A DNA stretch of 18,682 nucleotides from a virus (IMGVR_UViG_2778261570_000014); one strand, 5' to 3'; positions 4,331 through 17,962 are shown, counted from the stretch's first letter. The notes: a model not told the origin generated them from the letters alone. Numbers and translations are program-made.

Positions 4331-7300
4331 TTAATCCTCAAGCAGAGCATCCAGCGACTGGTCATTAATAGTTGTGCTCGCACGTGGTCGCGGCTGCGGC
4401 TGCGATGTTTTGACAACATTATCCGGATCGCCTTTTGTATTGTTCTTGTTCACATTCAGCAGATCGTTCAGGATAGAGCAGATGTTATCCAGCGCCTTCA
4501 ACATAGCAGGATCGTTATTTATAGTGTCAGTAGTTAATGGTTGTCTTATTCCGCTTCGTGCGAGATCGGTTACAGTAGGGAGTTGTGGCGGCATAGCAAG
4601 AAAAGGTTCTTGCACAGCTGAAGCAGAGCCAAATATGGCGTTATTGGCACCAGTTGCTATTCCCCTAATGCTATTAGCGGTTTGTTGAATCCCCCCATTC
4701 AGCCAGTCTCCAACATTTCTTGTTAATGGGCTAATAGCTCGCGCAATCGCACTATTCTGCCCAGTAGACTGCATTACAAGATCGTTCAATATCCCTGTAC
4801 TATCAATCCCCCCAACAAGTCGTGAAAGGTTATCGCCAACGGCAGGAATTACTGCGGTTCCTGTCTGTTTAAGCCCTGACACCGTGGAATCAAATAGCGA
4901 ACCAAAGAAGCTCTTATCCTCACCTGTAACCACCTTGTAGCCGTTGTCATAAATCTGCACATCACTTGGTGCCGTGATAGTTCGTTTTCCAGAGGTAACT
5001 ACTGGCGCAGCTCCCGCCATAGCCTGGCTGATTGCTAGAGCCTGCTCCTGCTGTGGGGTTTTCGGTGCAGGCGCTGCAGACGAAAAGCCCGCCATAGCCT
5101 GGCTGATTGCTAGAGCCTGCTCCTGCTGTGGAGTTTTCGGTGCTGGCGCTGCAGATGAAAAGCCCGCCATAGCCTGGCTGATTGCTAGAGCCTGCTCCTG
5201 CTGTGGAGTTTTCGGTGCTGGCGCTGCAGATGAAAAGCCCGCCATAGCCTGGCTGATTGCTAGAGCCTGCTCCTGCTGTGGAGTTTTCGGTGCTGGCGCT
5301 GCAGATGAAAAGCCCGCCATAGCCTGGCTGATTGCTAGAGCCTGCTCCTGCTGTGGAGTTTTCGGAGTAGAAGGGGATACTTGATCTCCCGGAAGTAGAT
5401 CAATGATTTCTGTATCGTGATTAACAGTGCGTTTTTGTTGTATGGCTGTTGCGATATCAGCCGCTTGAGAAGCTTTTTTAAATCCAAAAGATTTACCGGT
5501 TAAGCCGGATATCTTTTCAGTAAGAGCCTGATCCATTCCTTTCGCTTTTTCGGAAAGCGAAGATATAGAACCAAACGAAGTAGCCAACGCAAAATCCTTT
5601 ACCAGGTCCAGACTTGTTCCAGCAAGGCTGGTAGCCGCGCCGCCAAATAAATTACTTGCACCACTGATTCCGCTTTCATTTATTGCGATTAACCGCTCAA
5701 GCAAACTCGATGGAGAGCCGGTATTAACATCAGCGTTCTCTGGATTAATCGGTTGTGGTTGGTTACCTGTTTTTTGTGGCTTTTTGACTGCCTGGGCATG
5801 TTGTGCAACCTCAATTGGCTGTTGTGTTGCTGTCGGAACGGCATTCAAAACTGGTTGAGCTGGAGATTTTCCATTAGCATATTTTACCTTGCGACCAACA
5901 CTATATTGCGAATCGCGGGCAATTAGCTGACCACCATTTTCTTTCTGAATTTTATTAATCCGCGCCAATGTTTCGTCAGAGAATTGTCCCTCCCATAGAC
6001 CAGTGTTTGTGTTAAATGCTCCAAGTGCGTTCTTAATGAACTCATTATTAACTGCCGGATTTCCGCCTTCTTTCGTCGCAATTGCACGAACTAATTGCGT
6101 CATAACCTCTGGTTTGCTGACATCTATTTTTTCATTAGGCGATACACCAAGATATTTACTGACGTTATCAATATATTGGTTAGTATTGTTCTCATTTGGC
6201 GGTGCCCATTTTGAAATGATGCTGGATACCGTCTGTAACTTCTGATATCCCGCTGCGGCACTGGTGCCGTTGTAATAGCTGGAAACCTGGTTTGCCAGTG
6301 CCCTGATCCCTTCTTCAGGTGTGTTAAATCGCGCAAAACGTTGTTCACCTTTTGCATTTGGCGATTCCAGCGTCGCCCCTTCCTGGTTGGCAAAAACAAG
6401 ATTGCCGAGATTATTATTTCGGTAATTGCGGTTTTTAGCGTTGCTGCCGCCAATATTCAGATCCGCTGCAATGGTGTTGTTGGCAGGTGAACTAAATTCA
6501 GTTGGAGAAGTATACCCGTGCTCACCAACTCCATCCTCGCCATTACGCCCACCTTGTAATTGTTCACCTAGAGAATGAATCGCATCGACAGTTTTTTTGG
6601 TGCCGTCTTCAACAGCTTTTTTTACTTGTTTCGTGTTTTCGTCAGTGGATAAAAATGTATCCTTAAGGCTACCAAAAACAGATTTGGTGATATCTACCGC
6701 GCCGTTAACACCACGAGCAATATCTCCGGTATCAAAATTCTGAAGTTTTTCACCTGCTCTTTCAAATCCTAGCGCAGAAATTCCTTTCCCTATCAAGTTC
6801 GTTGCGCCCGACACCAAGCCCCCCATATCGAGCACATTAGCTGTTGCGTAAGCCGTTTTTTGCTGTTCGGCTACAGCATCATCGTCACTTAATCCAAAGG
6901 CTGCCTTTTGCGCATCTGTATCAGTGTAACCATCTATAGCGTCATATCCCGCCATAGCCAGCGAACCGATGATAGGGATAGCTCTTGCAGCTGTAGAAGC
7001 AGCTGATTTAACACCTATTTTTGCAGCACTTTTGAGGGCTACGGATTCGGTTTTTTTCTTTGCAACAGTTTCACCTGTTTTAACTGTGGCCTCTTCGGCA
7101 ACAACACCTGCTGGCTTAACTGCCTTTGCTGTGTTTTTTGTTTCTTTAGCAATACCCTTAGATGCGTCGCTTGTGGTGCTGATGTCTTTGGCTTTACTAA
7201 CCTTTGTTTTAACAGTCTTTGCAGCTCCGGCACCAGCTCCAGCAGCAGCGGTTCCGGCAGCGGCTTTTTCACCAACAGTAAGGGCTTTTTTCCCCAGATT

Positions 7301-8515: not shown

Positions 8516-9337
8516 TTAATAATGGTTAGCCATCCATTCAGATCTAATTGATGGGATAAACTCTCTATTGAGAAAGGGGACGTACAGTGTGGTTGTCACA
8601 TCTGCACCCTCCTTAGCGTTTTTGCAATGTTGCGGAGGCAGGATCAGTCGGCTTGAGCCTCTCTCAATAGACATTTTCAGGCCGTGGCGTAGGTCTTTTT
8701 GCATAAGCTGTATGCGAGCCACAAGCGGGGTAAATTCGGTTTCAAGCGCCATGCTTTCAATGATGTCAAAGCGTCGGTTAGCGGCCTGCGTGAAGTCCTC
8801 CGGATCGTCTTCAAGCGCCGTGCATAAAGCGAGTTCAGCAATTCGCATCCGTGCTACGCCAGCACTGTATTCGGGAGTTTTCATATCAGGAAGTGACGCT
8901 CGCATTCGTTCAAGGAGTTCCGCGCCTTTCCCGGTTAATGGTTTAAGTATCCAGTCAGTTGGTACTCCATTTACTGGTACGTTGGTTTTCACGTAAGGAG
9001 GTACAGTGAGTATTTCTACTGTTTGGGCCAGGTCGCTCAGGTTAATATCTGCATGATGCGTATTACCGCAGTGACTGCACTCATAGGAGTAGGTCATTAC
9101 TGCATCGGGGCGCGAATTAACAAATATCCACCAAAGAGCAGTTCTGCGGTCCTGAACTGTCCAGTTAGCACTGTCGTTAATTTCACCATCCTGCATAGAG
9201 TTAAGGTACTCTGTAGTCGTTGCCTCATCTTCTGCCGGGTTCAGGTCAGAATATTTCAGCGCATCCTTCACGGTAGGGGCGTGGAACTGAATTTCTGTCT
9301 CAGGACGGGAAGGCAATGGGAATTTTGGAATGTTCAA
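8516..9337 (-). CDS. Hypothetical protein (273 aa) with a C-x2-C...HH...N motif; divergently oriented from repA
   Basis: ORF with apparent TTG start at 9337 and a GGAGG Shine-Dalgarno 5 nt upstream; first in-frame Met is about residue 47. Contains YECSHCGNTHHADINL. Function unknown. Confidence 0.5.
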   Translation of the reverse strand: MNIPKFPLPSRPETEIQFHAPTVKDALKYSDLNPAEDEATTTEYLNSMQDGEINDSANWTVQDRRTALWWIFVNSRPDAVMTYSYECSHCGNTHHADINLSDLAQTVEILTVPPYVKTNVPVNGVPTDWILKPLTGKGAELLERMRASLPDMKTPEYSAGVARMRIAELALCTALEDDPEDFTQAANRRFDIIESMALETEFTPLVARIQLMQKDLRHGLKMSIERGSSRLILPPQHCKNAKEGADVTTTLYVPFLNREFIPSIRSEWMANHY

Positions 9338-9442
9338 TTATTCCTCCGAAAAGCAGGTATCTGTTCATTTTCCAGAGGATAGGGAGTGTGTGATTTGCGA
9401 TGGGGATTGAATGAAGATCTTTGCCGGTCGAGAAGCGATTAT

Positions 9443-9461
9443 TGAGGGTGATTTTTACACC
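9443..9461 (+). promoter_or_regulatory. Inverted iteron copy upstream of the origin, probable RepA operator
   Basis: TGAGGGTGATTTTTACACC is the reverse complement of the iteron consensus with two mismatches. Confidence 0.5.
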
Positions 9462-9479
9462 TTAAGTGACGCTACTCAC

Positions 9480-9488
9480 ATATCCACA
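9480..9488 (+). promoter_or_regulatory. DnaA-box-like site (ATATCCACA, 8/9 match to TTATNCACA)
   Basis: Seen in sequence directly next to the AT-rich tract and iterons, the usual Rep_3 origin layout. Confidence 0.45.
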
Positions 9489-9545
9489 GAGTATTTTTAT
9501 AAACCTTTTTCCATTTTTAATCCTTTTTAGATCCTTTTTAGGCGT
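9489..9545 (+). promoter_or_regulatory. AT-rich tract with short phased CCTTTTT-type repeats, candidate DNA-unwinding element
   Basis: CCTTTTTCC, ATTTTTAA and TCCTTTTTAG (twice, 11 bp apart) between the DnaA-box-like site and the iterons. Confidence 0.45.
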
Positions 9546-9583
9546 CGCTGGAGCCAGTAGTGGCGCGGGCTGTAGAGGAGGCT

Positions 9584-9701
9584 GGTGTAAGATTTGCCCT
9601 CAATTAAATACGATCGGTGTAAGATTTGCCCTCAGAAGGTGTAAGATTTGCCCTCAAAAGGTGTAGTAATTGCCCTCAAAGTGGTGTAAAAATTGCCCTC
9701 A
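9584..9701 (+). repeat. Iteron array: five direct 19-bp repeats (consensus GGTGTAAGATTTGCCCTCA) upstream of repA
   Basis: Copies at 9584-9602, 9616-9634, 9638-9656, 9660-9678 and 9683-9701. The first three are identical; copies 4 and 5 differ at 2-3 positions. Spacing 32, 22, 22, 23 bp. Confidence 0.85.
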
Positions 9702-9725
9702 CCATTTGAAGGATCACACAGGGTT

Positions 9726-10481
9726 ATGAACAGAGCGGAATTAACAGCAAAAGCCGTCAGCCTGATTGAGTCAGCGACACCTATTAGTCGTAGTCTGGCA
9801 CAAGCCAATGAGATCACGGAGGCTGCTTATCACCTGACTCGCGACCAAAAGCGACTGTTGTTTATTGTGGTGGGAAGACTTCGCTATGCTTCTAAGGATG
9901 GCGTTCTTGGTTCAGGTGCCTGTGAGTTGACGGTCAACGAATATGCAGAGATGTATAATTTGCCCTCTGCTGAAGCCAGCAAGGATATTCGTAAGGCCAT
10001 TTCAGGGCTTAGCGAGAAGAAAGTTACGATATATAACCCTGATGAATCGACCGAATCAGAAGACAGTTATGAGTCTTATCCCTGGATGATTAAGGATGCC
10101 TATTCACCACGGCGCGGGACTTACATTATTCATCTTAATCCATATCTCATGCCGTTTTTTACTCTGCTTGATAAGAGATTCACAAGGCTGAATTTTACCG
10201 AAGTATCTCGCCTTACAAATCCTTATTCTATGCGGCTTTATGAGTCCTTATGCCAGTACAGGAAGGATGATGGAAGCGGCTTTGCCATACTTGGCGTCGA
10301 ATGGATGCGGGAGCGTTATGGGTTACCAAAAAGCTATCAGCGGTATGCCGAATTTAAGAGAAGTTTTTTAACGAAGGCTGTAGCAGAGATTGAAAAAAAT
10401 ACAAAAATGAAAATAGTCTTCTCAGAGGTGACGGAAGGCGGCAAAGTTACCAGGATAAAATTTACCTATCAGCAGTCTTAA
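9726..10481 (+). CDS. repA: Replication initiator RepA, Rep_3 family (iteron-binding)
   Basis: 251 aa from ATG 9726 (the ORF track starts at an in-frame TTG at 9693 inside iteron 5). Flanked by iterons; resembles pSC101 RepA from memory (LTRDQKRLLFIVVG..., NPYSMRLYESL..., C-terminal KVTRIKFTY). Only gene on the plus strand in a minus-strand cluster. Confidence 0.85.
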   Translation: MNRAELTAKAVSLIESATPISRSLAQANEITEAAYHLTRDQKRLLFIVVGRLRYASKDGVLGSGACELTVNEYAEMYNLPSAEASKDIRKAISGLSEKKVTIYNPDESTESEDSYESYPWMIKDAYSPRRGTYIIHLNPYLMPFFTLLDKRFTRLNFTEVSRLTNPYSMRLYESLCQYRKDDGSGFAILGVEWMRERYGLPKSYQRYAEFKRSFLTKAVAEIEKNTKMKIVFSEVTEGGKVTRIKFTYQQS

Positions 10482-10772
10482 GGGCAATTTTTACACCCCT
10501 CTCAAGGTGTAGAATTTGCCCTTAACGATCGGCAATTGAGGGTAATTTTTACATCTTAATTGCATGTATCTTGTTATTAGCAAGTTGTGTTTTTATATAA
10601 CGTATTGATATGTAAGGATTATGTAAAAAACGCCCTCAACCAATATCGTGCGTATCGTGCATTCTTATTGCGCTTTTTTATTATCATTCACTGTGTTAAC
10701 TGATTGATATTATTGAAATATGTAAAGAATGCCTTCATTGCAGATGGATTGATGATGTAAAAAATGCCCTCA
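10479..10772 (+). repeat. Downstream iteron cluster: at least six iteron-like sites, mixed orientation and degenerate, in an AT-rich region
   Basis: Inverted copy 10479-10497 overlapping the repA stop, direct 10506-10524, inverted 10537-10555, and degenerate direct copies at 10621-10638, 10720-10737 and 10754-10772. No ORF in this region. Confidence 0.7.
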
Positions 10773-10862
10773 AAATTGCGCTACCTTCCCTACCCGCTAT
10801 CGTTGAGGTCGTGGGTGCTGACGGGAAATGAGCAACCCTCCAGCACACATAATTAAAGCTAT

Positions 10863-11570
10863 TCAGAATTTGATCACTCCACTCACAGCCCCCTTTAACG
10901 CGCTTGTAGCCATGCCAGCGGCACCGTTGACCAAAGCAGAAACACCTGAGCCTGCGGATGTGTATTTCTGGAAAGTGATTGGATATGACAAGAACTCTGA
11001 CACCTGGTCTCGTGAGCGGGTGATTTCCCCAAGTTGAGTGGGGAATACGCGCATTTCCTCTTCCAGTTCTTTACCGCCATCCTGAGTTACCCGGTAGAGC
11101 CGGATCTTCATTAGATATTCAGGAGGAAGGTTTATTGTTCCGTCCGGGTTTGTCACGCGGGAACGACGCTCTTTGAACCAGTTCATGATCTTGCCGTCTT
11201 CGGTATCCCTTACGGTCATCGTGACTGGTCCGGCGGTGACGTAGGTTGGCTTGCTGAACTCTACGCTACCTATCACCTTGTTTTCTGTCTCGATATTTCC
11301 GCTGCTGTAGGTGATATCCTTCACGAACATATCGAAACCGTTCAGACCGTCCACTTCAACCGTCCACTGCCATCCCTGGGCGTAACGAATACGCATAGCG
11401 GCAGCAACAATATTTTTCCCGTAGGCAATATCGCTGCTGTAGTTCCCACTTACCCCGCCGCCGGATATTGCTTTATCCAGAATGTCGCTAATGAGGTTGC
11501 TGGTGAATGATTTTGTGTTAAATGACAGTGCGGTGGTCAACGTTCTGCCAACGCTGCTGAAAATACTCAC
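10863..11570 (-). CDS. Hypothetical virion or tail protein (235 aa)
   Basis: Co-oriented with the tail genes; apparent GTG start at 11570 with GGAGG upstream. No motif recognised. Confidence 0.5.
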   Translation of the reverse strand: MSIFSSVGRTLTTALSFNTKSFTSNLISDILDKAISGGGVSGNYSSDIAYGKNIVAAAMRIRYAQGWQWTVEVDGLNGFDMFVKDITYSSGNIETENKVIGSVEFSKPTYVTAGPVTMTVRDTEDGKIMNWFKERRSRVTNPDGTINLPPEYLMKIRLYRVTQDGGKELEEEMRVFPTQLGEITRSRDQVSEFLSYPITFQKYTSAGSGVSALVNGAAGMATSALKGAVSGVIKF

Positions 11571-11585: not shown

Positions 11586-12137
11586 TTAAAAAATGGTAGC
11601 CCCCGGAATAATCGCCCGGTTTGAGGACATTTTTTCTTCAATCTCCTGAACGCGGGCATATAACGTGGCTTCATCAGGTAGATCTGAGTAGTCAAATTTC
11701 CCGTCGATGGACGCTCGACGCTGGCGGGCGACATTTCTGACATTGATAAGCGCCTCCAGGTATTCTTCCAACATACCAATGATTGCAGGCGGCACTTGCC
11801 ATTCGTCCAGTTTTCTGTCGCGGAGATTAACCAGATACAGCATCCGAAAAGGCCATCGTTCTGAACCTGTCAGCTCTAATTCAATAAAGCCGGATAGTTC
11901 ATCCGAATAGACCAAAAGGCCATTGCTGTCGGTGACGTGAACAAGGGATAGATAATCTTCCGGCAATGGGATTGCGGTGCCACCAGCTTTTTCGAGTTTT
12001 AGTGTCTTCACTACCCCGGCCCTGTCCTGATACGTGGTCAGCGCTTTAATCAGGAAGGCTTTCAGCGTGTCTTCTTCACGCACAAGCAGTGGGTTAAATC
12101 GCGTTTTAACGCTTTCTAATAATTCGGTTGGTGTCAT
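11586..12137 (-). CDS. Hypothetical virion or tail protein (183 aa)
   Basis: ATG at 12137; lies between the tail tube gene and the 235-aa gene. No motif recognised. Confidence 0.5.
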   Translation of the reverse strand: MTPTELLESVKTRFNPLLVREEDTLKAFLIKALTTYQDRAGVVKTLKLEKAGGTAIPLPEDYLSLVHVTDSNGLLVYSDELSGFIELELTGSERWPFRMLYLVNLRDRKLDEWQVPPAIIGMLEEYLEALINVRNVARQRRASIDGKFDYSDLPDEATLYARVQEIEEKMSSNRAIIPGATIF

Positions 12138-12163
12138 CGTACCTACAACTCAAATACAAGGAA

Positions 12164-12184
12164 TTCCCGCCACAAGGGCGGGAA
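12164..12184 (-). other. Intercistronic stem-loop (TTCCCGCC / GGCGGGAA, 5-nt loop) directly after the tail tube stop codon
   Basis: Perfect 8-bp GC-rich inverted repeat, followed on the minus transcript by a moderately U-rich stretch before the next ATG. Confidence 0.4.
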
Positions 12185-12189
12185 AGAGA

Positions 12190-12681
12190 TCACTCTACCC
12201 AGTTGTAAACAATACGCAGGGAAGGCTTAACGACCGCTGTTACGTCTTCGGATGAGAAGTCCACGGCGTCGGAATACACTTTGCAATGAGAATATGTGCG
12301 GATCAGACCTTTATGGTTACCGCTATTCGATTCAGCCGCCGCCTGTAAGGTAATTTCCAGATATTCTTTTCCGTATACCATCTGTTTTACAGCGGCGAGA
12401 ACTGCGCCTTCGATAGTTTCCGCGCATGTGACCTGAAATTCACCAGAGTTGCGTAATGGTCCGTGCTGGTTGAATTTCATGCCACCAGGGGCGTAATCCT
12501 CCACATCTTCACGTGTCATTTCTGGTAACTGAGCTGTACGAACTAGTACAGACAGATGTTCGTAACCCTTAATGGTCATCCAATATTCAGAACCAATAAG
12601 TTTTTCGCCTGCAGCCAGGTTTTTATTAAACCGGGATTTTAGAAAGGCCATATCGGCTTTTGTATTTGCAAAACCGGACAT
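12190..12681 (-). CDS. Tail tube protein, T4 gp19-like (163 aa)
   Basis: Same length as T4 gp19 and similar landmarks from memory (RTAQLPE vs KATALPAG; C-terminal ...VYNWVE vs ...LDYWE). Strong AGGAG Shine-Dalgarno; downstream of the sheath gene. Confidence 0.55.
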   Translation of the reverse strand: MSGFANTKADMAFLKSRFNKNLAAGEKLIGSEYWMTIKGYEHLSVLVRTAQLPEMTREDVEDYAPGGMKFNQHGPLRNSGEFQVTCAETIEGAVLAAVKQMVYGKEYLEITLQAAAESNSGNHKGLIRTYSHCKVYSDAVDFSSEDVTAVVKPSLRIVYNWVE

Positions 12682-12689
12682 AAATACTC

Positions 12690-13286
12690 CTACACAAAAA
12701 CAGATGAGATATTGCTACGGTTGATCGATGTGTTACCGCTGCATTGCAGGGTTACCGTGTTATGAGTGAAATAGCCTTCCGGTGTGCGCGGGGCGTCCAG
12801 TTGGTAACTCACGCTTTTGATAACAACGCCAGTTAGCAGGACGTTTCTGCCAATATTAATTGTGACTGTTTCAGGAATCCTTCCCATTGGCGCAACGTCA
12901 TTTAACTCTGGAGAGGCCATTTTCAATAAGGTTGTAATTGCGTCATTAACTTCAATTTTTGCATTGGATGTTGCTAAGAAATCCAGCACAAGATTGAACT
13001 CTGGTGGCTGTTGTCCTTCCCAGATTAACGTGGAATTGAATCGGCTTTTGCTTGTCAGTCCACTTAAATTTTGAACTATGCTGGCAAATGATGACGCTGC
13101 TTCACTAATTGAGCCTAACAAACTTCCCATAGCTTTATCTTCAAATGGGGATTGCCATAGTGATGCTAATTCCGCCGACGAACCTTCTCCAATATAGCCG
13201 ACCACCATATCTGTATTGGACTCGTTTATAATATAAACCTTTAAAAAAGGGCTTATGCCATCAGCTAAACTTGCTCCGCAATACAC
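12690..13286 (-). CDS. Hypothetical tail-associated protein (198 aa)
   Basis: Between the sheath and tube genes; apparent GTG start at 13286 with GGGAG upstream, so the start is uncertain. No motif recognised. Confidence 0.45.
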   Translation of the reverse strand: MYCGASLADGISPFLKVYIINESNTDMVVGYIGEGSSAELASLWQSPFEDKAMGSLLGSISEAASSFASIVQNLSGLTSKSRFNSTLIWEGQQPPEFNLVLDFLATSNAKIEVNDAITTLLKMASPELNDVAPMGRIPETVTINIGRNVLLTGVVIKSVSYQLDAPRTPEGYFTHNTVTLQCSGNTSINRSNISSVFV

Positions 13287-13334
13287 AGCTATTTCTCCCA
13301 GGTAGAGGCCACCTTTGCAGGCGGCCTATGTCAC

Positions 13335-14069
13335 TTACAAACCGCGTTTTTTGCGAATGCGCATTGATTTTTTGCGGTTGATATTCGCTACGGATGTATG
13401 TGCTTTGCGGCGTGCTTTTTTCAGCGCCTGTTTTTGCAATGACGTCATGCGGCGAGGACGCGGGCGTTTACGGATGATGGTAACCTTGCCATCACGAACC
13501 ACTTTTTTACGTACCGCTTCCAGCATTGCGCTATCACCACCAGCAACGGTGTAAATGGCAATAGCTGTTTCCATCATGTCGGTGTCGCTTTCGGAAAGAG
13601 CGTCAAAAACACGTTCGGCAGCTGAGTCATCTTCATCGTCGATCATTTCGGTTACATCGTCCTGATCAGCGCCAAGCGCAACAGCTGCATCAGCAAGAGC
13701 TGCGAGAGCATCGTTATAAGCATCGATTTGTTCATCGGTGAAATCGGTGCCTTCATCGATATCAGCCAGGCCAGCCATAGTGATTGCTAATGCATCAAAT
13801 GAGTCAGCCTCCGGATCACCATCTTCAACCCAACCAGCAAGCATGGACGCTGCCAGGCTGCGCATATCACCTTGTGCACGGGATTCAACCGCTTCCATCA
13901 TCGCGGTTTCAATGTCGTCTTTGGGCTTTGGTTGAGTGTCCTTTCCTTTCTGTCCTGCACTTTCCAGCATGGCGTTATCATTATTGTCCTGAGTGGATTT
14001 ATCACCGCTTTCAAAGCAGCCAGAACCGAAAATCGCACGCATAAACGGATCAGCAGTATAATTTTTCAT
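13335..14069 (-). CDS. Bipartite acidic/basic protein (about 244 aa): strongly acidic N-terminal two thirds and a Lys/Arg-rich C-terminal tail
   Basis: ORF track starts at TTG 14075; the more likely start is ATG 14069 with GAGAGG upstream. Acidic runs (DDEDDSAAE..., EDGDPEADSFD...) then ...RKRPRPRRMTSLQKQALKKARRKAH...RKKSMRIRKKRGL. No homolog recognised. Confidence 0.5.
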   Translation of the reverse strand: MKNYTADPFMRAIFGSGCFESGDKSTQDNNDNAMLESAGQKGKDTQPKPKDDIETAMMEAVESRAQGDMRSLAASMLAGWVEDGDPEADSFDALAITMAGLADIDEGTDFTDEQIDAYNDALAALADAAVALGADQDDVTEMIDDEDDSAAERVFDALSESDTDMMETAIAIYTVAGGDSAMLEAVRKKVVRDGKVTIIRKRPRPRRMTSLQKQALKKARRKAHTSVANINRKKSMRIRKKRGL

Positions 14070-14083
14070 ATTCAAACCTCTCT

Positions 14084-14105
14084 CCCCCGCATCATTTAGC
14101 GGGGG
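14084..14105 (-). other. Intercistronic stem-loop (CCCCCGC / GCGGGGG, 8-nt loop) directly after the sheath stop codon
   Basis: Perfect 7-bp GC stem 8 nt from the sheath stop; no U-tract on the minus transcript. Confidence 0.4.
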
Positions 14106-14112
14106 TTATAAA

Positions 14113-15771
14113 TCAGCGCATCAGAATTGGCTTACCGACGATTCGGCGAGCTGTACCGGTCGGACAAACAGACCAGGCCACTTCCCACAGATCGATGTCC
14201 TTTTGGACAACCTGAACAACATATGGATCTTCACCCTGGGACTTGTCACGTGGAGTAACCAGCGCACCGGCTGCAACGTAACGGTCAAGCAATTCAGTCA
14301 TTGCTTTCATTAGCGCTTCTTTGGTAATGCCATCCGGTTCGTGCTTAATCGCCTGAGCTACTTCATAGAAATCTCTGGCGATGGCGTTCATCAAGGAAGA
14401 CACATGCTGGAATCGCAGATAGTTGTTTTTGCTGTAAGTTGTTAAAGAGTCGTCAATGTAAACGGACCCGTCAGCAGCAACTGAAACTGGATTAATGCGC
14501 GCAAGAACGAACGCTTCACGATCAACTGCACCGATATTTGGAATTCGGGCAATGTTCTGTCGATCAATAATCGCGCGTGATATACCTGCCGGTGCGTAAT
14601 GCCAACCACCAACATCCGGTACCAGCGCCACTCCTTTTGCCTTCGCTACGAATGCGTCGCAGCTAATGCCATAGACGACATTCATTCCAGTGAAAGTATC
14701 TCGGCAGGAGAGCGGGAAGTAGTAACGGCTTGGTTGATGTGAGCCGCCAAAACTATGGCTTTTCGCTTCTGAAATAGCGTTTTCAGGTGTCTGGTTGCCC
14801 TTCAGGTCATAGAACATGTCTACGCGAACATCTTCAGCCAGCTTTTTGATTGCGGCTAAGGCGGATGCGTCATAACAACCCAATGACAGCAATGCGGTGT
14901 AATTAACCTCTGAAGCTTCGAGAACCTTTAATGCTTCCAGATAGTCTGCAGCGGCAATTTCGGACAGATTTCCATCAGTACCACCTTCAAAAGCCACATC
15001 CTCAAAAATGAGTTGAGCAGCGGATGCTTCTGCATTATCTGCCAGTACGGCACCAATGCGAGTGGACTGGCTTTCAAGCAGTGTCGGAATCCATGCTGGT
15101 TGGCCCATGTCGTTGGTGCCTTCTGGATTGAAAGACACTTGGTGGCTTTCCAGCACCTCAATGGACCCATCGGTTTTTTTTTCTTTCAGCGTCAGCGTAA
15201 AGAGTTCGCTTTCTTCATCATCGCGAGTTAGTGATAACGTGCGATTTTGAGATGCATCACCATCTTTGATGAAGAATAATGCCTTCTCTCCACCTTTAAT
15301 CTGGGGCGTCTCTTTGGGTGTGAAGGTCACTGATTGAGTCGTTGCAGTTGGAGCAACACCAACGCTTAATGTGTCACCTGGATTTGCTGTGGTTTCAGTA
15401 GGTTCAACGGAAAGTTCTTTGCTCGCCTTTGCCGCTTTTGCTTTGCCCACAACGGAAACAGAAATACCCGGCACCTTCATGTCTTTAGCGCAAACTCGAA
15501 CGACATATCCAGAGCCGCCTTTTACTGCACGCTCCACGTGGCGATATGGTTCAAATGCCGCGCCCAGGCGAGGGTGAATCGGTGAACCTAATACGCTTTG
15601 ATAAGTCGTATCGTCAACTTTCAGTACCTTACCCGGTGCGCCACGACGCGATATTACAAGCCCAGCAAAGACGGATGCGCCACCGCTGGTATTGGTGAGG
15701 GTAGCGTCAGCATTTACTGACATTACAGCAACGCCAGCTGCCTGCCCTACCGAAAAACTAATCTTATTCAT
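14113..15771 (-). CDS. Tail sheath protein (552 aa)
   Basis: Size and the C-terminal domain resemble T4 gp18 from memory (WHYAPAGISRAII vs WMSPAGYNRGQI; ...INPVSVAADGSVYIDDS...). ATG with GAGGA upstream; followed by tube-like genes. Confidence 0.7.
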   Translation of the reverse strand: MNKISFSVGQAAGVAVMSVNADATLTNTSGGASVFAGLVISRRGAPGKVLKVDDTTYQSVLGSPIHPRLGAAFEPYRHVERAVKGGSGYVVRVCAKDMKVPGISVSVVGKAKAAKASKELSVEPTETTANPGDTLSVGVAPTATTQSVTFTPKETPQIKGGEKALFFIKDGDASQNRTLSLTRDDEESELFTLTLKEKKTDGSIEVLESHQVSFNPEGTNDMGQPAWIPTLLESQSTRIGAVLADNAEASAAQLIFEDVAFEGGTDGNLSEIAAADYLEALKVLEASEVNYTALLSLGCYDASALAAIKKLAEDVRVDMFYDLKGNQTPENAISEAKSHSFGGSHQPSRYYFPLSCRDTFTGMNVVYGISCDAFVAKAKGVALVPDVGGWHYAPAGISRAIIDRQNIARIPNIGAVDREAFVLARINPVSVAADGSVYIDDSLTTYSKNNYLRFQHVSSLMNAIARDFYEVAQAIKHEPDGITKEALMKAMTELLDRYVAAGALVTPRDKSQGEDPYVVQVVQKDIDLWEVAWSVCPTGTARRIVGKPILMR

Positions 15772-15838
15772 GCTGGTTCTTATCCTCTAAAGCGAGAGAA
15801 CGAGGCAAGGCTGCCCACGGTTAATGGGCAGCCTCTGA

Positions 15839-16117
15839 TCAGGATTCGCTTACCGTGAAGTTATCGCCTACAGTTACTTCTTTCGTAGTTGGTTCAACAC
15901 TGACGGTGCTTACGCTTTTATGTGCCTCCCTAACAGTGACTGTGCACTGTGCGGTTTTATTGCCGTCATTTGTTTTGATTGTCAGCACTGCCTGCCCGGC
16001 CTTAAGAGCGGTACATGTAGTGCCATCAACCTGGACAATATCAGGGTGATCTGACTCAACAGTGAAAGATTTGTCTGTTGCGTCAGGTGGCGTGATAGTT
16101 ACTTGAATGTTTGCCAT
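15839..16117 (-). CDS. Small Ig-like (Big_2-type) domain protein (92 aa), possible capsid or tail decoration
   Basis: Pattern ...FTVESDHPDIVQVDGTTCTALKAGQAVLTIKTNDGNKTAQCTVTV fits the bacterial Ig-like group 2 consensus. AAGGAG 6 nt upstream of the ATG. Confidence 0.55.
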   Translation of the reverse strand: MANIQVTITPPDATDKSFTVESDHPDIVQVDGTTCTALKAGQAVLTIKTNDGNKTAQCTVTVREAHKSVSTVSVEPTTKEVTVGDNFTVSES

Positions 16118-16130
16118 TTTTTTCTCCTTA

Positions 16131-16158
16131 ACGCCCCTTAATCAGGGGCGTGTTTTTG
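16131..16158 (+). terminator. Terminator-shaped hairpin (ACGCCCCT / AGGGGCGT, 5-nt loop) followed by GTTTTTG on the plus strand
   Basis: Canonical intrinsic-terminator geometry for plus-strand transcription, but it lies between two minus-strand genes just upstream of the Ig-like gene's ribosome-binding site. Confidence 0.4.
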
Positions 16159-16264
16159 CCTTACTTCTGCTTTGTTTTTTTCTGTGCCTTTGAAGTGTTC
16201 GCGGCGATAGTTTCACCTTCATCTACGTCAAGTGACGTTGGTGATACCGACACGTTCGCCACCA

Positions 16265-17962
16265 TCACTTTTTTTCGTTAACCTTGCCTGTCAGCATGTC
16301 GATAGCACCTTCTTTGGCACGAGTCAGACGCAGGCGGGTGAAGTAGTTTTCACCGTTGCGAGGATGTACTTCGTTGATGGCACTGCCCCAGAGAGTGGTA
16401 CGGTTAACGAGAGACGGATTGGTTTCGTGAACGTAAGGGATTGCTGGGACTGCATCACCAGCAATCAGACCGGCTTTACCGATGCCTTCGCCACGCCCAT
16501 AGAAGAAGATGTCATCCAGCCCGAAGTCATATCCCTGTGCCAGGAATTGCTCACAGACAGGTTGCGGCACTTCGTAAATACGAATCGTGCCAAACAGGGT
16601 GCCGATGTACTGTACATACGGCGACTGAACGTAACCTGGTGCGATCTGGAAGTGCTGTGGAGGCAGAGAGCGCAGGAAGTTCGCGGCGTCACTACCAGCA
16701 AAGCCGCCACGAATACCCGTTGTCAGGGTACGATTTGCCATTTCTTGAGACAGAGCGTTTACTGCGTGACGCAGGAGGCCGACCCTGGACTCATAGTTTT
16801 GAGCTTCCGGCAGAGCCACATCAAATTCACGACCATAAACGGTATGGAATACCAGGGTGCGCAGACGCATGATGTCGGTTTCATGGGAGATCCAGTTACG
16901 CATCGCGGAGAACTGAAGTGCCGCTAATTCAAGGCCGTGCTCACGGCTTAAATCGGATGCGGACATTACCGTGTGTTCGGAAGCAAGTACGTACTGGGAC
17001 GGACGAACTTCGTACTTACGCATAGCCTGGTTGATCACCGGAATCAGGCTTGGATTGCGCTCGATGTTAATTTCGACCTGAACAGCAATTTCAGTACCTA
17101 CTGGCGGAGCCTGGGTAAATGTAATGTCAATGACACCAGTGTCATAGGCAACTTTGGCAGTCGCTGAGAAAGTATTACCTTTGCTGTCTTTAGCATTGAA
17201 ATAAAGGTTGCCATCGCCGTCGTCAACTTTGGACGGTTTGCGGTTGATCAGCAGTTTGTTATAACCAGCGCGAAGCGGGCAGGATTGTCCCTCAAATTTT
17301 TGGATGTTGAACTGGAAGGTTTTGGTGCTGCCATCCCCTTTAGTGGAAAGGGCATACAGGCGCTTCATTTGAGAATAAACACCAGCTGACTGCATATTCA
17401 GTTCGTCACCTTGTTTGAAGGTGCCGAATTTTGTGCCTGCTACGTTGACCAGTTCATAAATATTTGACTCGTCACGATCACAAGGAACAAAAGTACAGGC
17501 ATCACTGGTAGCAGCGCCCAGAGAGGCAGGCAGAATTAGAGCAGCATATTGAGCAACTTTCATTACGCCGTCAGAGCTACGCATTGATTGCGCGACAGAC
17601 TCAAACATTGCCTTACCCGTGCCTTCATGGGTATCACTGGCACATTCAGTCATCAGGCGTTCAAGAGCCATGTGTGCGTTCGCCAGGATGTCACTTGCCG
17701 GGTAATGACCATGTTGATGTTTATACTCATGCAGAGACATAGCCCACCCACCAGTGATCTGACGAGCGACCTCTGGATTTACGCCTTCAAACATAGGCAC
17801 TTTCTGGATTGCTTTATCCAGGTTTTCCATCATTACTGCCTGGTCAGCAATCATGTTGCCTGCTGCATCGGTGGTCGGATCGACGGTCATAGCCATGACG
17901 CTTGCCGCCCGATTCATAATCTCGCGCTCGCGATCACGAGCTGGCTGAATGTTTTTATTCAC
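16265..17962 (-). CDS. Putative major capsid protein (up to 565 aa)
   Basis: Long ORF upstream of the Ig-like and sheath genes; function assigned by position and size only. Start is ambiguous between GTG 17962 and ATG 17917; neither has a strong Shine-Dalgarno. Confidence 0.45.
   Translation of the reverse strand: MNKNIQPARDREREIMNRAASVMAMTVDPTTDAAGNMIADQAVMMENLDKAIQKVPMFEGVNPEVARQITGGWAMSLHEYKHQHGHYPASDILANAHMALERLMTECASDTHEGTGKAMFESVAQSMRSSDGVMKVAQYAALILPASLGAATSDACTFVPCDRDESNIYELVNVAGTKFGTFKQGDELNMQSAGVYSQMKRLYALSTKGDGSTKTFQFNIQKFEGQSCPLRAGYNKLLINRKPSKVDDGDGNLYFNAKDSKGNTFSATAKVAYDTGVIDITFTQAPPVGTEIAVQVEINIERNPSLIPVINQAMRKYEVRPSQYVLASEHTVMSASDLSREHGLELAALQFSAMRNWISHETDIMRLRTLVFHTVYGREFDVALPEAQNYESRVGLLRHAVNALSQEMANRTLTTGIRGGFAGSDAANFLRSLPPQHFQIAPGYVQSPYVQYIGTLFGTIRIYEVPQPVCEQFLAQGYDFGLDDIFFYGRGEGIGKAGLIAGDAVPAIPYVHETNPSLVNRTTLWGSAINEVHPRNGENYFTRLRLTRAKEGAIDMLTGKVNEKK

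Follow-up and report, generated by a model that had tools for sequence, protein, structure and literature searches.

A gp21-like protein of the P1 phage group as a probable prohead substrate of the head protease Pro

What might a protein with an acidic body and a polybasic end be doing in the structural operon of a P1-type phage? The question is posed by IMGVR_UViG_2778261570_000014, a viral stretch of 18,682 nucleotides (the window), which is closely related to Escherichia phage D6, itself a plasmid-prophage akin to P1 (94.6% nucleotide identity to D6 over positions 12000-16200). A gene on its minus strand, at 13335-14069, encodes 244 amino acids and a stop codon; the product is homologous to D6 orf47 and to the product of P1 gene 21, falls in PHROG 1053, and is referred to here as the gp21-like protein. 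P1 serves as a model phage and as a mainstay of bacterial genetics, and phage-plasmids of the P1/D6 type are widespread carriers of resistance genes. The label of gene 21 has been vague since the 1980s, and the recent proteomic and cryogenic electron microscopy (cryo-EM) atlases of P1 leave gp21 unplaced. D6 orf47 (YP_009914724), which is 99.2% identical in amino acids to the window protein, is labelled "putative baseplate protein, similar to P1 gene 21", and the gp21 proteins of P1 (YP_006524) and P7, which are about 40-43% identical to it over most of the length, are labelled "baseplate or tail tube". We argue here, from sequence comparison, that the gp21-like protein is probably a component of the immature head, or prohead, that is processed by the protease Pro, and not a part of the tail; the fate of the cleaved fragments is proposed with less confidence.

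The capsid maturation motif in the gp21-like protein

The maturation cut of the P1 capsid protein, gp23, has been mapped by Edman degradation between E120 and S121, within KAMLE↓SVAAEM, where the arrow marks the cut (Gonzales et al., PMC9024508). At the homologous column the gp23 of the window reads KAMFE↓SVAQSM, and its predicted maturation site, A118-M-F-E121↓S122 (17597-17611, minus strand), stands in the same column as E120↓S121 of P1. Three sites of this kind are predicted in the gp21-like protein, all encoded on the minus strand. The first, A33-M-L-E36↓S37 (NAMLE↓SAGQ; 13959-13973), is identical to the mapped AMLE↓S of the P1 capsid protein, the second is A56-M-M-E59↓A60 (TAMME↓AVES; 13890-13904), and the third, A181-M-L-E184↓A185 (SAMLE↓AVRKK; 13515-13529), lies where the acidic part gives way to the basic one. 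The pattern [LIMF][LIMFT]E[SA] is matched three times in this protein against 0.14 expected, a count reached in 0 of 2000 shuffles, and between zero and two times in each of the other 14 window proteins; the motif expressions were refined after the gp21-like protein had been seen, and the shuffle P-values are consequently optimistic. The proteome-wide exclusivity of the motif and its co-variation, to which we now turn, are less exposed to such post hoc tuning.

The putative sites are conserved within the family. E36, S37 and E184 are invariant in an alignment of 23 sequences, as are E36, E59 and E184 in one of 40 sequences. The sites fall at domain boundaries and are retained amid otherwise variable, disordered sequence; the relatives likewise carry conserved motifs of the A-M-L-E-S/A type within variable stretches, with extra copies in some members. 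Across 215 members the junction before the basic module has M, I, L or V at position P3, L, F, M or T at P2, and A or S at P1', and the residue immediately before the cut (position P1) is E in 150 members, D in 52, and S or A in a few.

The identity of this residue is shared with the capsid protein: in every lineage examined its state, Glu, Asp or Ser, agrees between the capsid site and the sites of the gp21-like protein. Glu is found at both in P1, D6, the window and two further loci, L029 and L031, and in P1, D6 and L029 it is also found in the Pro motifs; in L029 the string SLITE is common to the Pro-like protein and the gp21-like junction, and the capsid protein reads SLIAE↓N. Among the Asp-type loci, the capsid sequence AILD↓SAG of L015-L018 is accompanied by PVFD↓SAG (PVFD↓AAG in L016) and LVLD↓ATQ in the gp21-like protein, and TLD↓SA of L003, L007 and L009 (ALD↓SA in L007) by PALD↓G, AALD↓S and PALD↓AVYKK. 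The Ser-type loci follow the same rule, with capsid NLLLS↓SISEA beside ELLLS↓S and GMLLS↓AVKK in L019, and capsid SMLLS↓SLS beside EMILS↓S and ALLLS↓SKKK in L024; the Ser-type motif occurs in no other gene of either locus (20 scanned in L019 and 17 in L024).

The motif is also confined to very few proteins. The D6 proteome (112 annotated coding sequences, 26,923 amino acids) contains eight matches to AM[LMF]E[SA], against about 0.1 expected by a rough estimate from amino-acid composition, and these are found in only four proteins: Pro with three, DarA with one, gp23 with one, which is its maturation site, and the gp21-like protein with three. The three copies in Pro lie in its C-terminal half together with LMLE↓S, and these four copies of the cleavage motif imply that Pro processes itself. 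The motif of DarA is AMFE65↓S66 in D6 and DLLE68↓A69 in P1; the Pro and DarA loci are at 22494-23492 and 28166-30103 of phage D6 (L025), outside the window, and at 11015-12034 of P1 (L027). Pro is known to remove some 9 kDa from the N-terminal end of DarA, and the cryo-EM map (PMC12810830) lacks residues 1-69 of the P1 protein. The motif in DarA thus coincides with the boundary of the missing N-terminus, and that in the capsid protein with the mapped cut, which argues that it is to be read as a cleavage site; for D6 DarA it predicts the exact maturation cut, AMFE65↓S66. As judged from these sequences, the proteins with the motif are precisely those known or expected to be cut by the head protease, with the gp21-like protein in addition. 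In RefSeq and PHROG 1801, Pro is named a "tail fiber protein", apparently through the spread of an annotation error.

Prohead proteases, such as those of T4 and HK97, act inside the assembled prohead. Because the maturation motif of the capsid protein is present at conserved boundaries of the gp21-like protein and co-evolves with the capsid site, we infer that the gp21-like protein is present in the prohead as a substrate and is cut there.

Charge layout, proposed processing and known counterparts

The sequence-only reading had described about 170 strongly acidic residues followed by a Lys/Arg-rich tail of some 50. Charge counts and shuffles bear out both the acidic part and the polybasic tail, and the lengths are about right, although a better layout is about 50 neutral disordered, about 135 acidic helical and about 60 basic residues. 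Residues 1-50, with seven K/R and seven D/E, are near neutral and predicted to be disordered; residues 51-185 have 38 D/E against three K/R (isoelectric point, pI, 4.05), and residues 186-244 (59 amino acids) have 25 K/R against a single D/E (pI 12). The cumulative-charge excursion of the protein was equalled in 0 of 20,000 sequence shuffles. An AlphaFold2 model built from the 40-sequence alignment has a mean predicted local distance difference test score (pLDDT) of 78.5. In the model, residues 1-46 are disordered (pLDDT <50 at residues 1-7 and 17-46), residues 50-176 form a compact helical domain that is confidently predicted (pLDDT mostly >90), and a low-confidence linker (177-185) leads to the basic module, which is composed of a beta-hairpin (187-200) and two helices (210-222 and 226-241; pLDDT 80-93).

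Cleavage at the three predicted sites would divide the precursor into four parts. Residues 1-36 (13962-14069, minus strand; 4.0 kDa, net charge -3) constitute a variable, predicted-disordered peptide running up to the first site, possibly a propeptide or capsid-targeting piece, and residues 37-59 a short linker (2.5 kDa, net -1). Residues 60-184 (13518-13892, minus strand; 13.0 kDa, net -31) make up an acidic, all-helical domain without a known fold relative, modelled with confidence (pLDDT mostly >90 over residues 60-170), and residues 185-244 (13338-13517, minus strand; 7.1 kDa, net +24, pI 12) the polybasic module, with its predicted beta-hairpin and two helices. The precursor as a whole is close to charge-balanced across the family: net charge is -10 +/- 4 over 251 members, in which the K+R and D+E counts are correlated (r = 0.78, or 0.61 with the effect of length removed), and in relatives with two basic modules the acidic residues are increased in proportion. 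Such conserved balance is consistent with masking of the basic module by the acidic domain up to the time of cleavage.

In the mechanism that we propose, Pro would cut the charge-balanced precursor inside the prohead after E36, E59 and E184, at a motif, A-M-(L/M/F)-E↓(S/A), that is common to the gp21-like protein, the capsid protein, DarA and Pro itself, and the cut at E184 would set the basic module free of the acidic domain. The latter could be a scaffold- or core-like filler, and its charge could also shield the basic module of the same molecule from nucleic acid. Once released, that module may stay with the packaged DNA, as a peptide that condenses it or as a counter-ion, which is the logic of the internal proteins of T4 and of pVII and mu of adenovirus, or it may serve to anchor the protein to the inner capsid wall and be uncoupled at maturation, which is the logic of the P22 and herpesvirus scaffolds. 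If the acid-masked precursor is accepted, then (A)-M/L-L/M/F-E↓S/A would define the substrates of Pro as the capsid protein, Pro, DarA and gp21. A role in the head is supported by the gene travelling with the capsid gene in one block. The scaffold role moreover appears to be vacant, since P1 is said to have no separate scaffold identified (PMC9024508 and another recent P1 paper); the same two sources propose the 120-residue N-terminal domain of the capsid protein of the P1 group as a scaffold. The proposal in its most complete form, in which Pro frees within the capsid an acid-masked, polybasic, DNA-condensing peptide of about 7 kDa, the counterpart of adenovirus pVII and pre-mu, from a precursor that is the missing core or scaffold of P1, and in which the tail assignment of gene 21 is a mis-mapping or polarity artefact, is, taken as a whole, a tentative one that we regard as rather doubtful.

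The closest counterparts of the protein are P1 gp21 and D6 orf47, which are true homologues: their genes likewise follow that of the sheath, and they share with the window protein its acidic/basic layout and motif copies of a similar kind. They show no structural difference from it, and it is the interpretation proposed here that departs from theirs. Beyond the family, the nearest parallel is with T4, in which the prohead protease, also called gp21, cuts after L/I-x-E in the core proteins gp22, gp67 and gp68 and the internal proteins IPI-III. These substrates share the capsid maturation motif and are cut after a Glu preceded by hydrophobic residues; they too have an N-terminal peptide that ends in a site, like a capsid-targeting sequence, and acidic core pieces and basic internal proteins are found together in the head. 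The P1-group protein differs in that it has no detectable homology of sequence or fold to them, in that its acidic and basic parts make up one polypeptide split by a site, and in that its gene follows the sheath gene and is not in a head-gene cluster; its processing, moreover, is predicted.

Scaffolds provide a second parallel. P22 gp8 has a basic, C-terminal, coat-binding helix-turn-helix, and in herpesviruses the maturation protease removes the C-terminal capsid-binding tail of the scaffold. Both resemble the gp21-like protein in having an acidic helical body and a small basic C-terminal element of two helices, and a protease site exactly between the two would uncouple the body from its partner. 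They show no homology to the gp21-like protein, however, and the latter has a body that is predicted to be compact and a module that is larger (60 residues with a beta-hairpin) and far more basic (+24). Searches for homology to scaffolds of the P22 gp8, T4 gp22 or phi29 gp7 type, or for an elongated coiled-coil architecture, found neither. By analogy only, the protein may also be likened to precursors of cationic peptides. Adenovirus pVII and pre-mu (pX) are cut in the particle by the adenoviral protease to give polybasic, DNA-condensing peptides, and cationic defensins have anionic propieces; the shared features would be release by a protease within the capsid, in the adenoviral case, and a linked anionic part that neutralizes the cationic one. 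Adenovirus is, in contrast, an unrelated lineage, and the gp21-like basic peptide would have to bind DNA and be retained in the phage head for the likeness to hold.

Were the protein indeed a substrate of Pro in the prohead, the gap left by the want of a separate head-core or scaffold protein in the P1 group would be filled, and a usable cleavage consensus would be obtained for the P1-type head protease, of relevance to P1-based protein delivery through capsid targeting. The design, a covalently acid-masked polybasic peptide released at maturation, would be new for phages as far as the literature that we found goes. The family itself is known and functionally unassigned, protease-processed core and internal proteins of the head are a known kind, and a re-annotation of a classical P1 gene is proposed, with which the propagated names "tail tube protein" and "baseplate protein" of the gp21 family are corrected.

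Counter-evidence and rival explanations

Several points weigh against a prohead substrate, in addition to the late refinement of the motif expressions. Cleavage of the gp21-like protein is a prediction only, the sequence searches made to tie Pro to a known protease family found none, with the role of Pro coming from the literature, and a literature search found no paper that connects P1 gp21 with a protease or with scaffolding. Recent P1 papers, PMC9024508 included, state that there is no separate scaffold in P1. Scaffolds are typically elongated coiled coils, whereas a compact, globular shape is predicted for the acidic domain, and the gene is placed among tail genes. The classical P1 cistron 21, finally, was labelled "baseplate or tail tube" from amber mutants of the tail-defective class. 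If the am21 alleles map to the gp21 open reading frame (ORF) and yield normal, full heads, the protein cannot be an essential scaffold; even then it could be a non-essential internal protein whose mutations have polar effects on the downstream tail genes, and should the alleles prove to be in pmgG or bplB the objection falls away.

The published virion data also belong on this side. P1 gp21 was undetected in virions with liquid chromatography coupled to tandem mass spectrometry (PMC9024508), and it has not been built in the P1 cryo-EM maps. Its absence fits a scaffold that leaves the head and gives no positive support. Trypsin gives only four peptides of a usable size from P1 gp21, which together account for 28% of its sequence, and the predicted cuts would destroy three of the four and leave the fourth within the removed N-terminal peptide, so that a tryptic search requiring two peptides would miss the processed protein; virion proteomics, which the sequence-only reading had named as a check, thus finds gp21 absent in a way that is uninformative given the predicted cuts. 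Disordered internal peptides would similarly not be resolved under icosahedral averaging in cryo-EM. Gene 21 has been called "essential" by CRISPR interference (CRISPRi), a call that carries no information, since the essential pmgG and bplB lie downstream of the gene; the polarity caveat comes also from the authors of that work.

The principal rival holds that the protein is a tail assembly factor that does not enter the virion, a functional analogue of lambda gpG/gpGT, whose acidic domain coats the basic tape-measure protein Sit (pI 9.35, net +25) and whose polybasic module binds the electronegative lumen face of the tube subunits and hands them over. It would explain the tail-less phenotype of classical gene 21 mutants, from which the "baseplate or tail tube" annotation is derived, the conserved position of the gene between sheath and tube-module genes, and the absence of gp21 from the virion proteome and the cryo-EM model, and the lumen of the P1 tube is indeed electronegative (PMC10304247). 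What it leaves unexplained are the three capsid-maturation motifs, their restriction to Pro, DarA, the major capsid protein (MCP) and the gp21-like protein, and the Glu/Asp/Ser co-variation. The gene, furthermore, is not in the slot between tube and tape-measure genes, the place before Sit being occupied by PmgB; there is no frameshift partner, as no second ORF on the same strand overlaps it; the protein is without similarity in sequence or fold to any tail chaperone, those of the lambda gpG/GT and P2 gpE/E+E' type included; and the "essential" call by CRISPRi is confounded by polarity on pmgG and bplB. We regard this explanation as unlikely, if the least so of the rivals. A tail-assembly chaperone was our first working hypothesis, and was dropped as the principal interpretation once the protease motifs and their co-variation appeared. 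Identity as a tail tube protein was likewise rejected, as the model is helical with one hairpin and not of the beta-sandwich fold of tube proteins. The "tail tube protein" label of relatives is further contradicted by the cryo-EM assignment in P1 of the tube, initiator and linker to BplB, Tub and PmgG (PMC10304247). For this family the names "tail protein", "tail tube protein" and "baseplate" given in databases lack support.

A quite different function, and in our view an improbable one, would be that of a nucleic-acid-binding regulator or cytoplasmic factor of late development, in which case the motif would be a different short linear motif that these proteins have in common, or would have arisen by chance. 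The modelled basic module does resemble a small folded nucleic-acid-binding domain, and cleavage of the gp21-like protein has never been observed. It is opposed by the finding that the motif falls, in the capsid protein, on a cut mapped by experiment and, in DarA, at the edge of the missing N-terminus, and also by the eight D6 matches set against the 0.1 or so allowed by chance and the appearance of all three states of the co-variation in independent lineages. Least probable of all, to the point of being far-fetched, is a packaged anti-restriction protein, an Ocr/ArdA-type DNA mimic whose basic tail tethers the acidic domain to the genome. In its favour are the charge pattern, the packaging by P1-type phages of Dar proteins that are processed by Pro, and the compatibility of protease motifs with a packaged internal protein. 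The likeness to Ocr (T7 gp0.3) and ArdA is restricted, however, to a high density of Asp and Glu: there is no similarity of structure or sequence to Ocr, ArdA or other mimics, a polybasic module is covalently attached, and the gene belongs to the core of the late structural operon, syntenic across divergent relatives, whereas Ocr and ArdA are early or leading-region accessory products and genes of the Dar type are accessory. Genetic dissection of the P1 Dar system has yielded six components (Ulx, DarB, DdrB, DdrA, DarA and Hdf), and gene 21 is not among them (PMC9024508).

Pfam, NCBIfam and PHROG scans at permissive E-values gave no match beyond PHROG 1053, a profile search of the sequences in the Protein Data Bank (PDB) gave 0 matches at E<=10, Foldseek with the AlphaFold2 model gave none at E<=1e-3 in BFVD and PDB, and the 60-residue basic module alone retrieved fragments of the gp21-like family only. 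The sequence-only reading had offered either a DNA mimic or a scaffold-like domain, with a basic tail that binds DNA or targets the protein to the virion. Its scaffold-like, virion-targeted half gains from the three motif copies that co-vary with the capsid site, while the mimic, for which there is no match in fold, Pfam family or sequence, is not supported; nor did searches by sequence and fold turn up the clear homology to a known tail chaperone or scaffold that would have spoken against that reading.

The locus, the family and other features of the window

The gp21-like ORF starts with an ATG at 14067-14069, seven nucleotides downstream of a GAGAGG ribosome-binding site, and ends with a TAA at 13335-13337. 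The order of genes on the minus strand is the capsid protein gp23 (17962-16265), a 92-residue Ig-domain protein, the sheath protein gp22 (15771-14113) and the gp21-like ORF (14069-13335), followed by PmgG, BplB, PmgC and Tub; beyond Tub come a plus-strand gene for a Rep3 plasmid initiator and then, again on the minus strand, PmgB, the tape-measure protein Sit, PmgA, BplA, gp16 and R. The gene had been placed between those for sheath and tube, which is correct for the sheath gene upstream (14113-15771) and not for a tube gene directly downstream, where PmgG adjoins instead. PmgG (12690-13286) is the protein that links tube to baseplate, and the true tube gene, BplB (12190-12681), follows it.

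The 41-nucleotide spacer between the sheath stop codon and the ribosome-binding site harbors a GC-rich stem-loop (14084-14105, minus strand) with a 7-bp stem, CCCCCGC/GCGGGGG, and without a T-run; its folding free energy is -17.2 kcal/mol (z = -4.1), and 0 of 200 shuffles fold equally well. This hairpin may be an attenuator that lowers downstream expression, or a stabilizer of the sheath mRNA. A weaker hairpin (z -1.75) is present at 13283-13340, past the gp21-like stop codon, and a scan for promoters and terminators around the gene found none above background.

PHROG 1053, a large family with no assigned function, matches the window protein at E 2.3e-84 over residues 1-244. The family includes 170 relatives at E<=1e-3 in a database clustered at 90% identity, and 497 representatives at 50% identity, 288 of them at <1e-10. 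Conservation of position, which the sequence-only reading had proposed to check, was confirmed by tblastn searches of P1, D6 and 16 loci of metagenomic or viral origin with the window proteins, supplemented with the gene tables of L019, L024 and L029. The order MCP, sheath, gp21-like gene, PmgG, tube is found in every locus with enough flanking sequence, and the block is kept even where MCP identity is just 21-30%. Since this order is constant across divergent loci, the gene is a core gene of the whole P1 super-group and not an accessory one. Among named phages the distant subfamilies are represented only by Xanthomonas phage Rb1, in which the protein is annotated as hypothetical; members of the Ser type gave no match in scans of viral contigs, and their loci came from the encoding contigs. 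In L031, a metagenomic contig, the sheath gene, between the capsid and gp21-like genes, is reduced to a 96-residue C-terminal remnant (1943-2233), which may reflect a decaying prophage or an assembly artefact.

Within the family, conservation is highest in the basic module, of which a few members have two copies. Two metagenomic relatives of about 410 residues, P0200 and P0251, have two basic modules with acidic sequence before each, the latter with a zinc-ribbon-like CxC...CxxC segment at its N-terminus; with two copies in both proteins, the module behaves as an independent, duplicable unit.

The remaining features of the window concern its replication and its other structural genes. The Rep3-family initiator gene (9693-10481, plus strand; Pfam Rep3_N, E 3e-29) lies within the tail-gene block between tub and pmgB. 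Iterons with the consensus GGTGTAAGATTTGCCCTC flank it as five tandem copies at 9583-9700 and again at 9949, 10505 and 10753, with inverted copies at 9442, 10478 and 10536; the gene and its iterons (9300-10900) are the origin of the plasmid-prophage. Within sit, a 75-bp tandem repeat (5013-5365; 4.7 copies, 98% matches) encodes five copies of PKTPQQEQALAISQAMAGFSSAAPA, and variation in repeat number could alter tail length; over the region compared, identity to D6 is only 75-81% in the N-terminal part of Sit, against 97-99% in the neighbouring genes. PmgG is similarly only 74% identical to its D6 counterpart, against 97-99% for the genes on either side, and looks like a recombination or mosaic patch; its longest ORF has a GTG start eight codons upstream of the start annotated in D6. 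PmgB (8516-9337), which has been proposed in the literature as a tape-measure chaperone, has a weak match to T4_baseplate (PF12322, E 4e-5, just below the cut-off) and to PHROG 150, "baseplate hub", and carries a CxxC motif; it may instead be a factor in hub assembly. The 92-residue ORF between the capsid and sheath genes (15839-16117) encodes a Big_2 Ig-like domain (E 2.8e-7) at a place where P1 has no gene, and its product could be a decoration or accessory structural protein.

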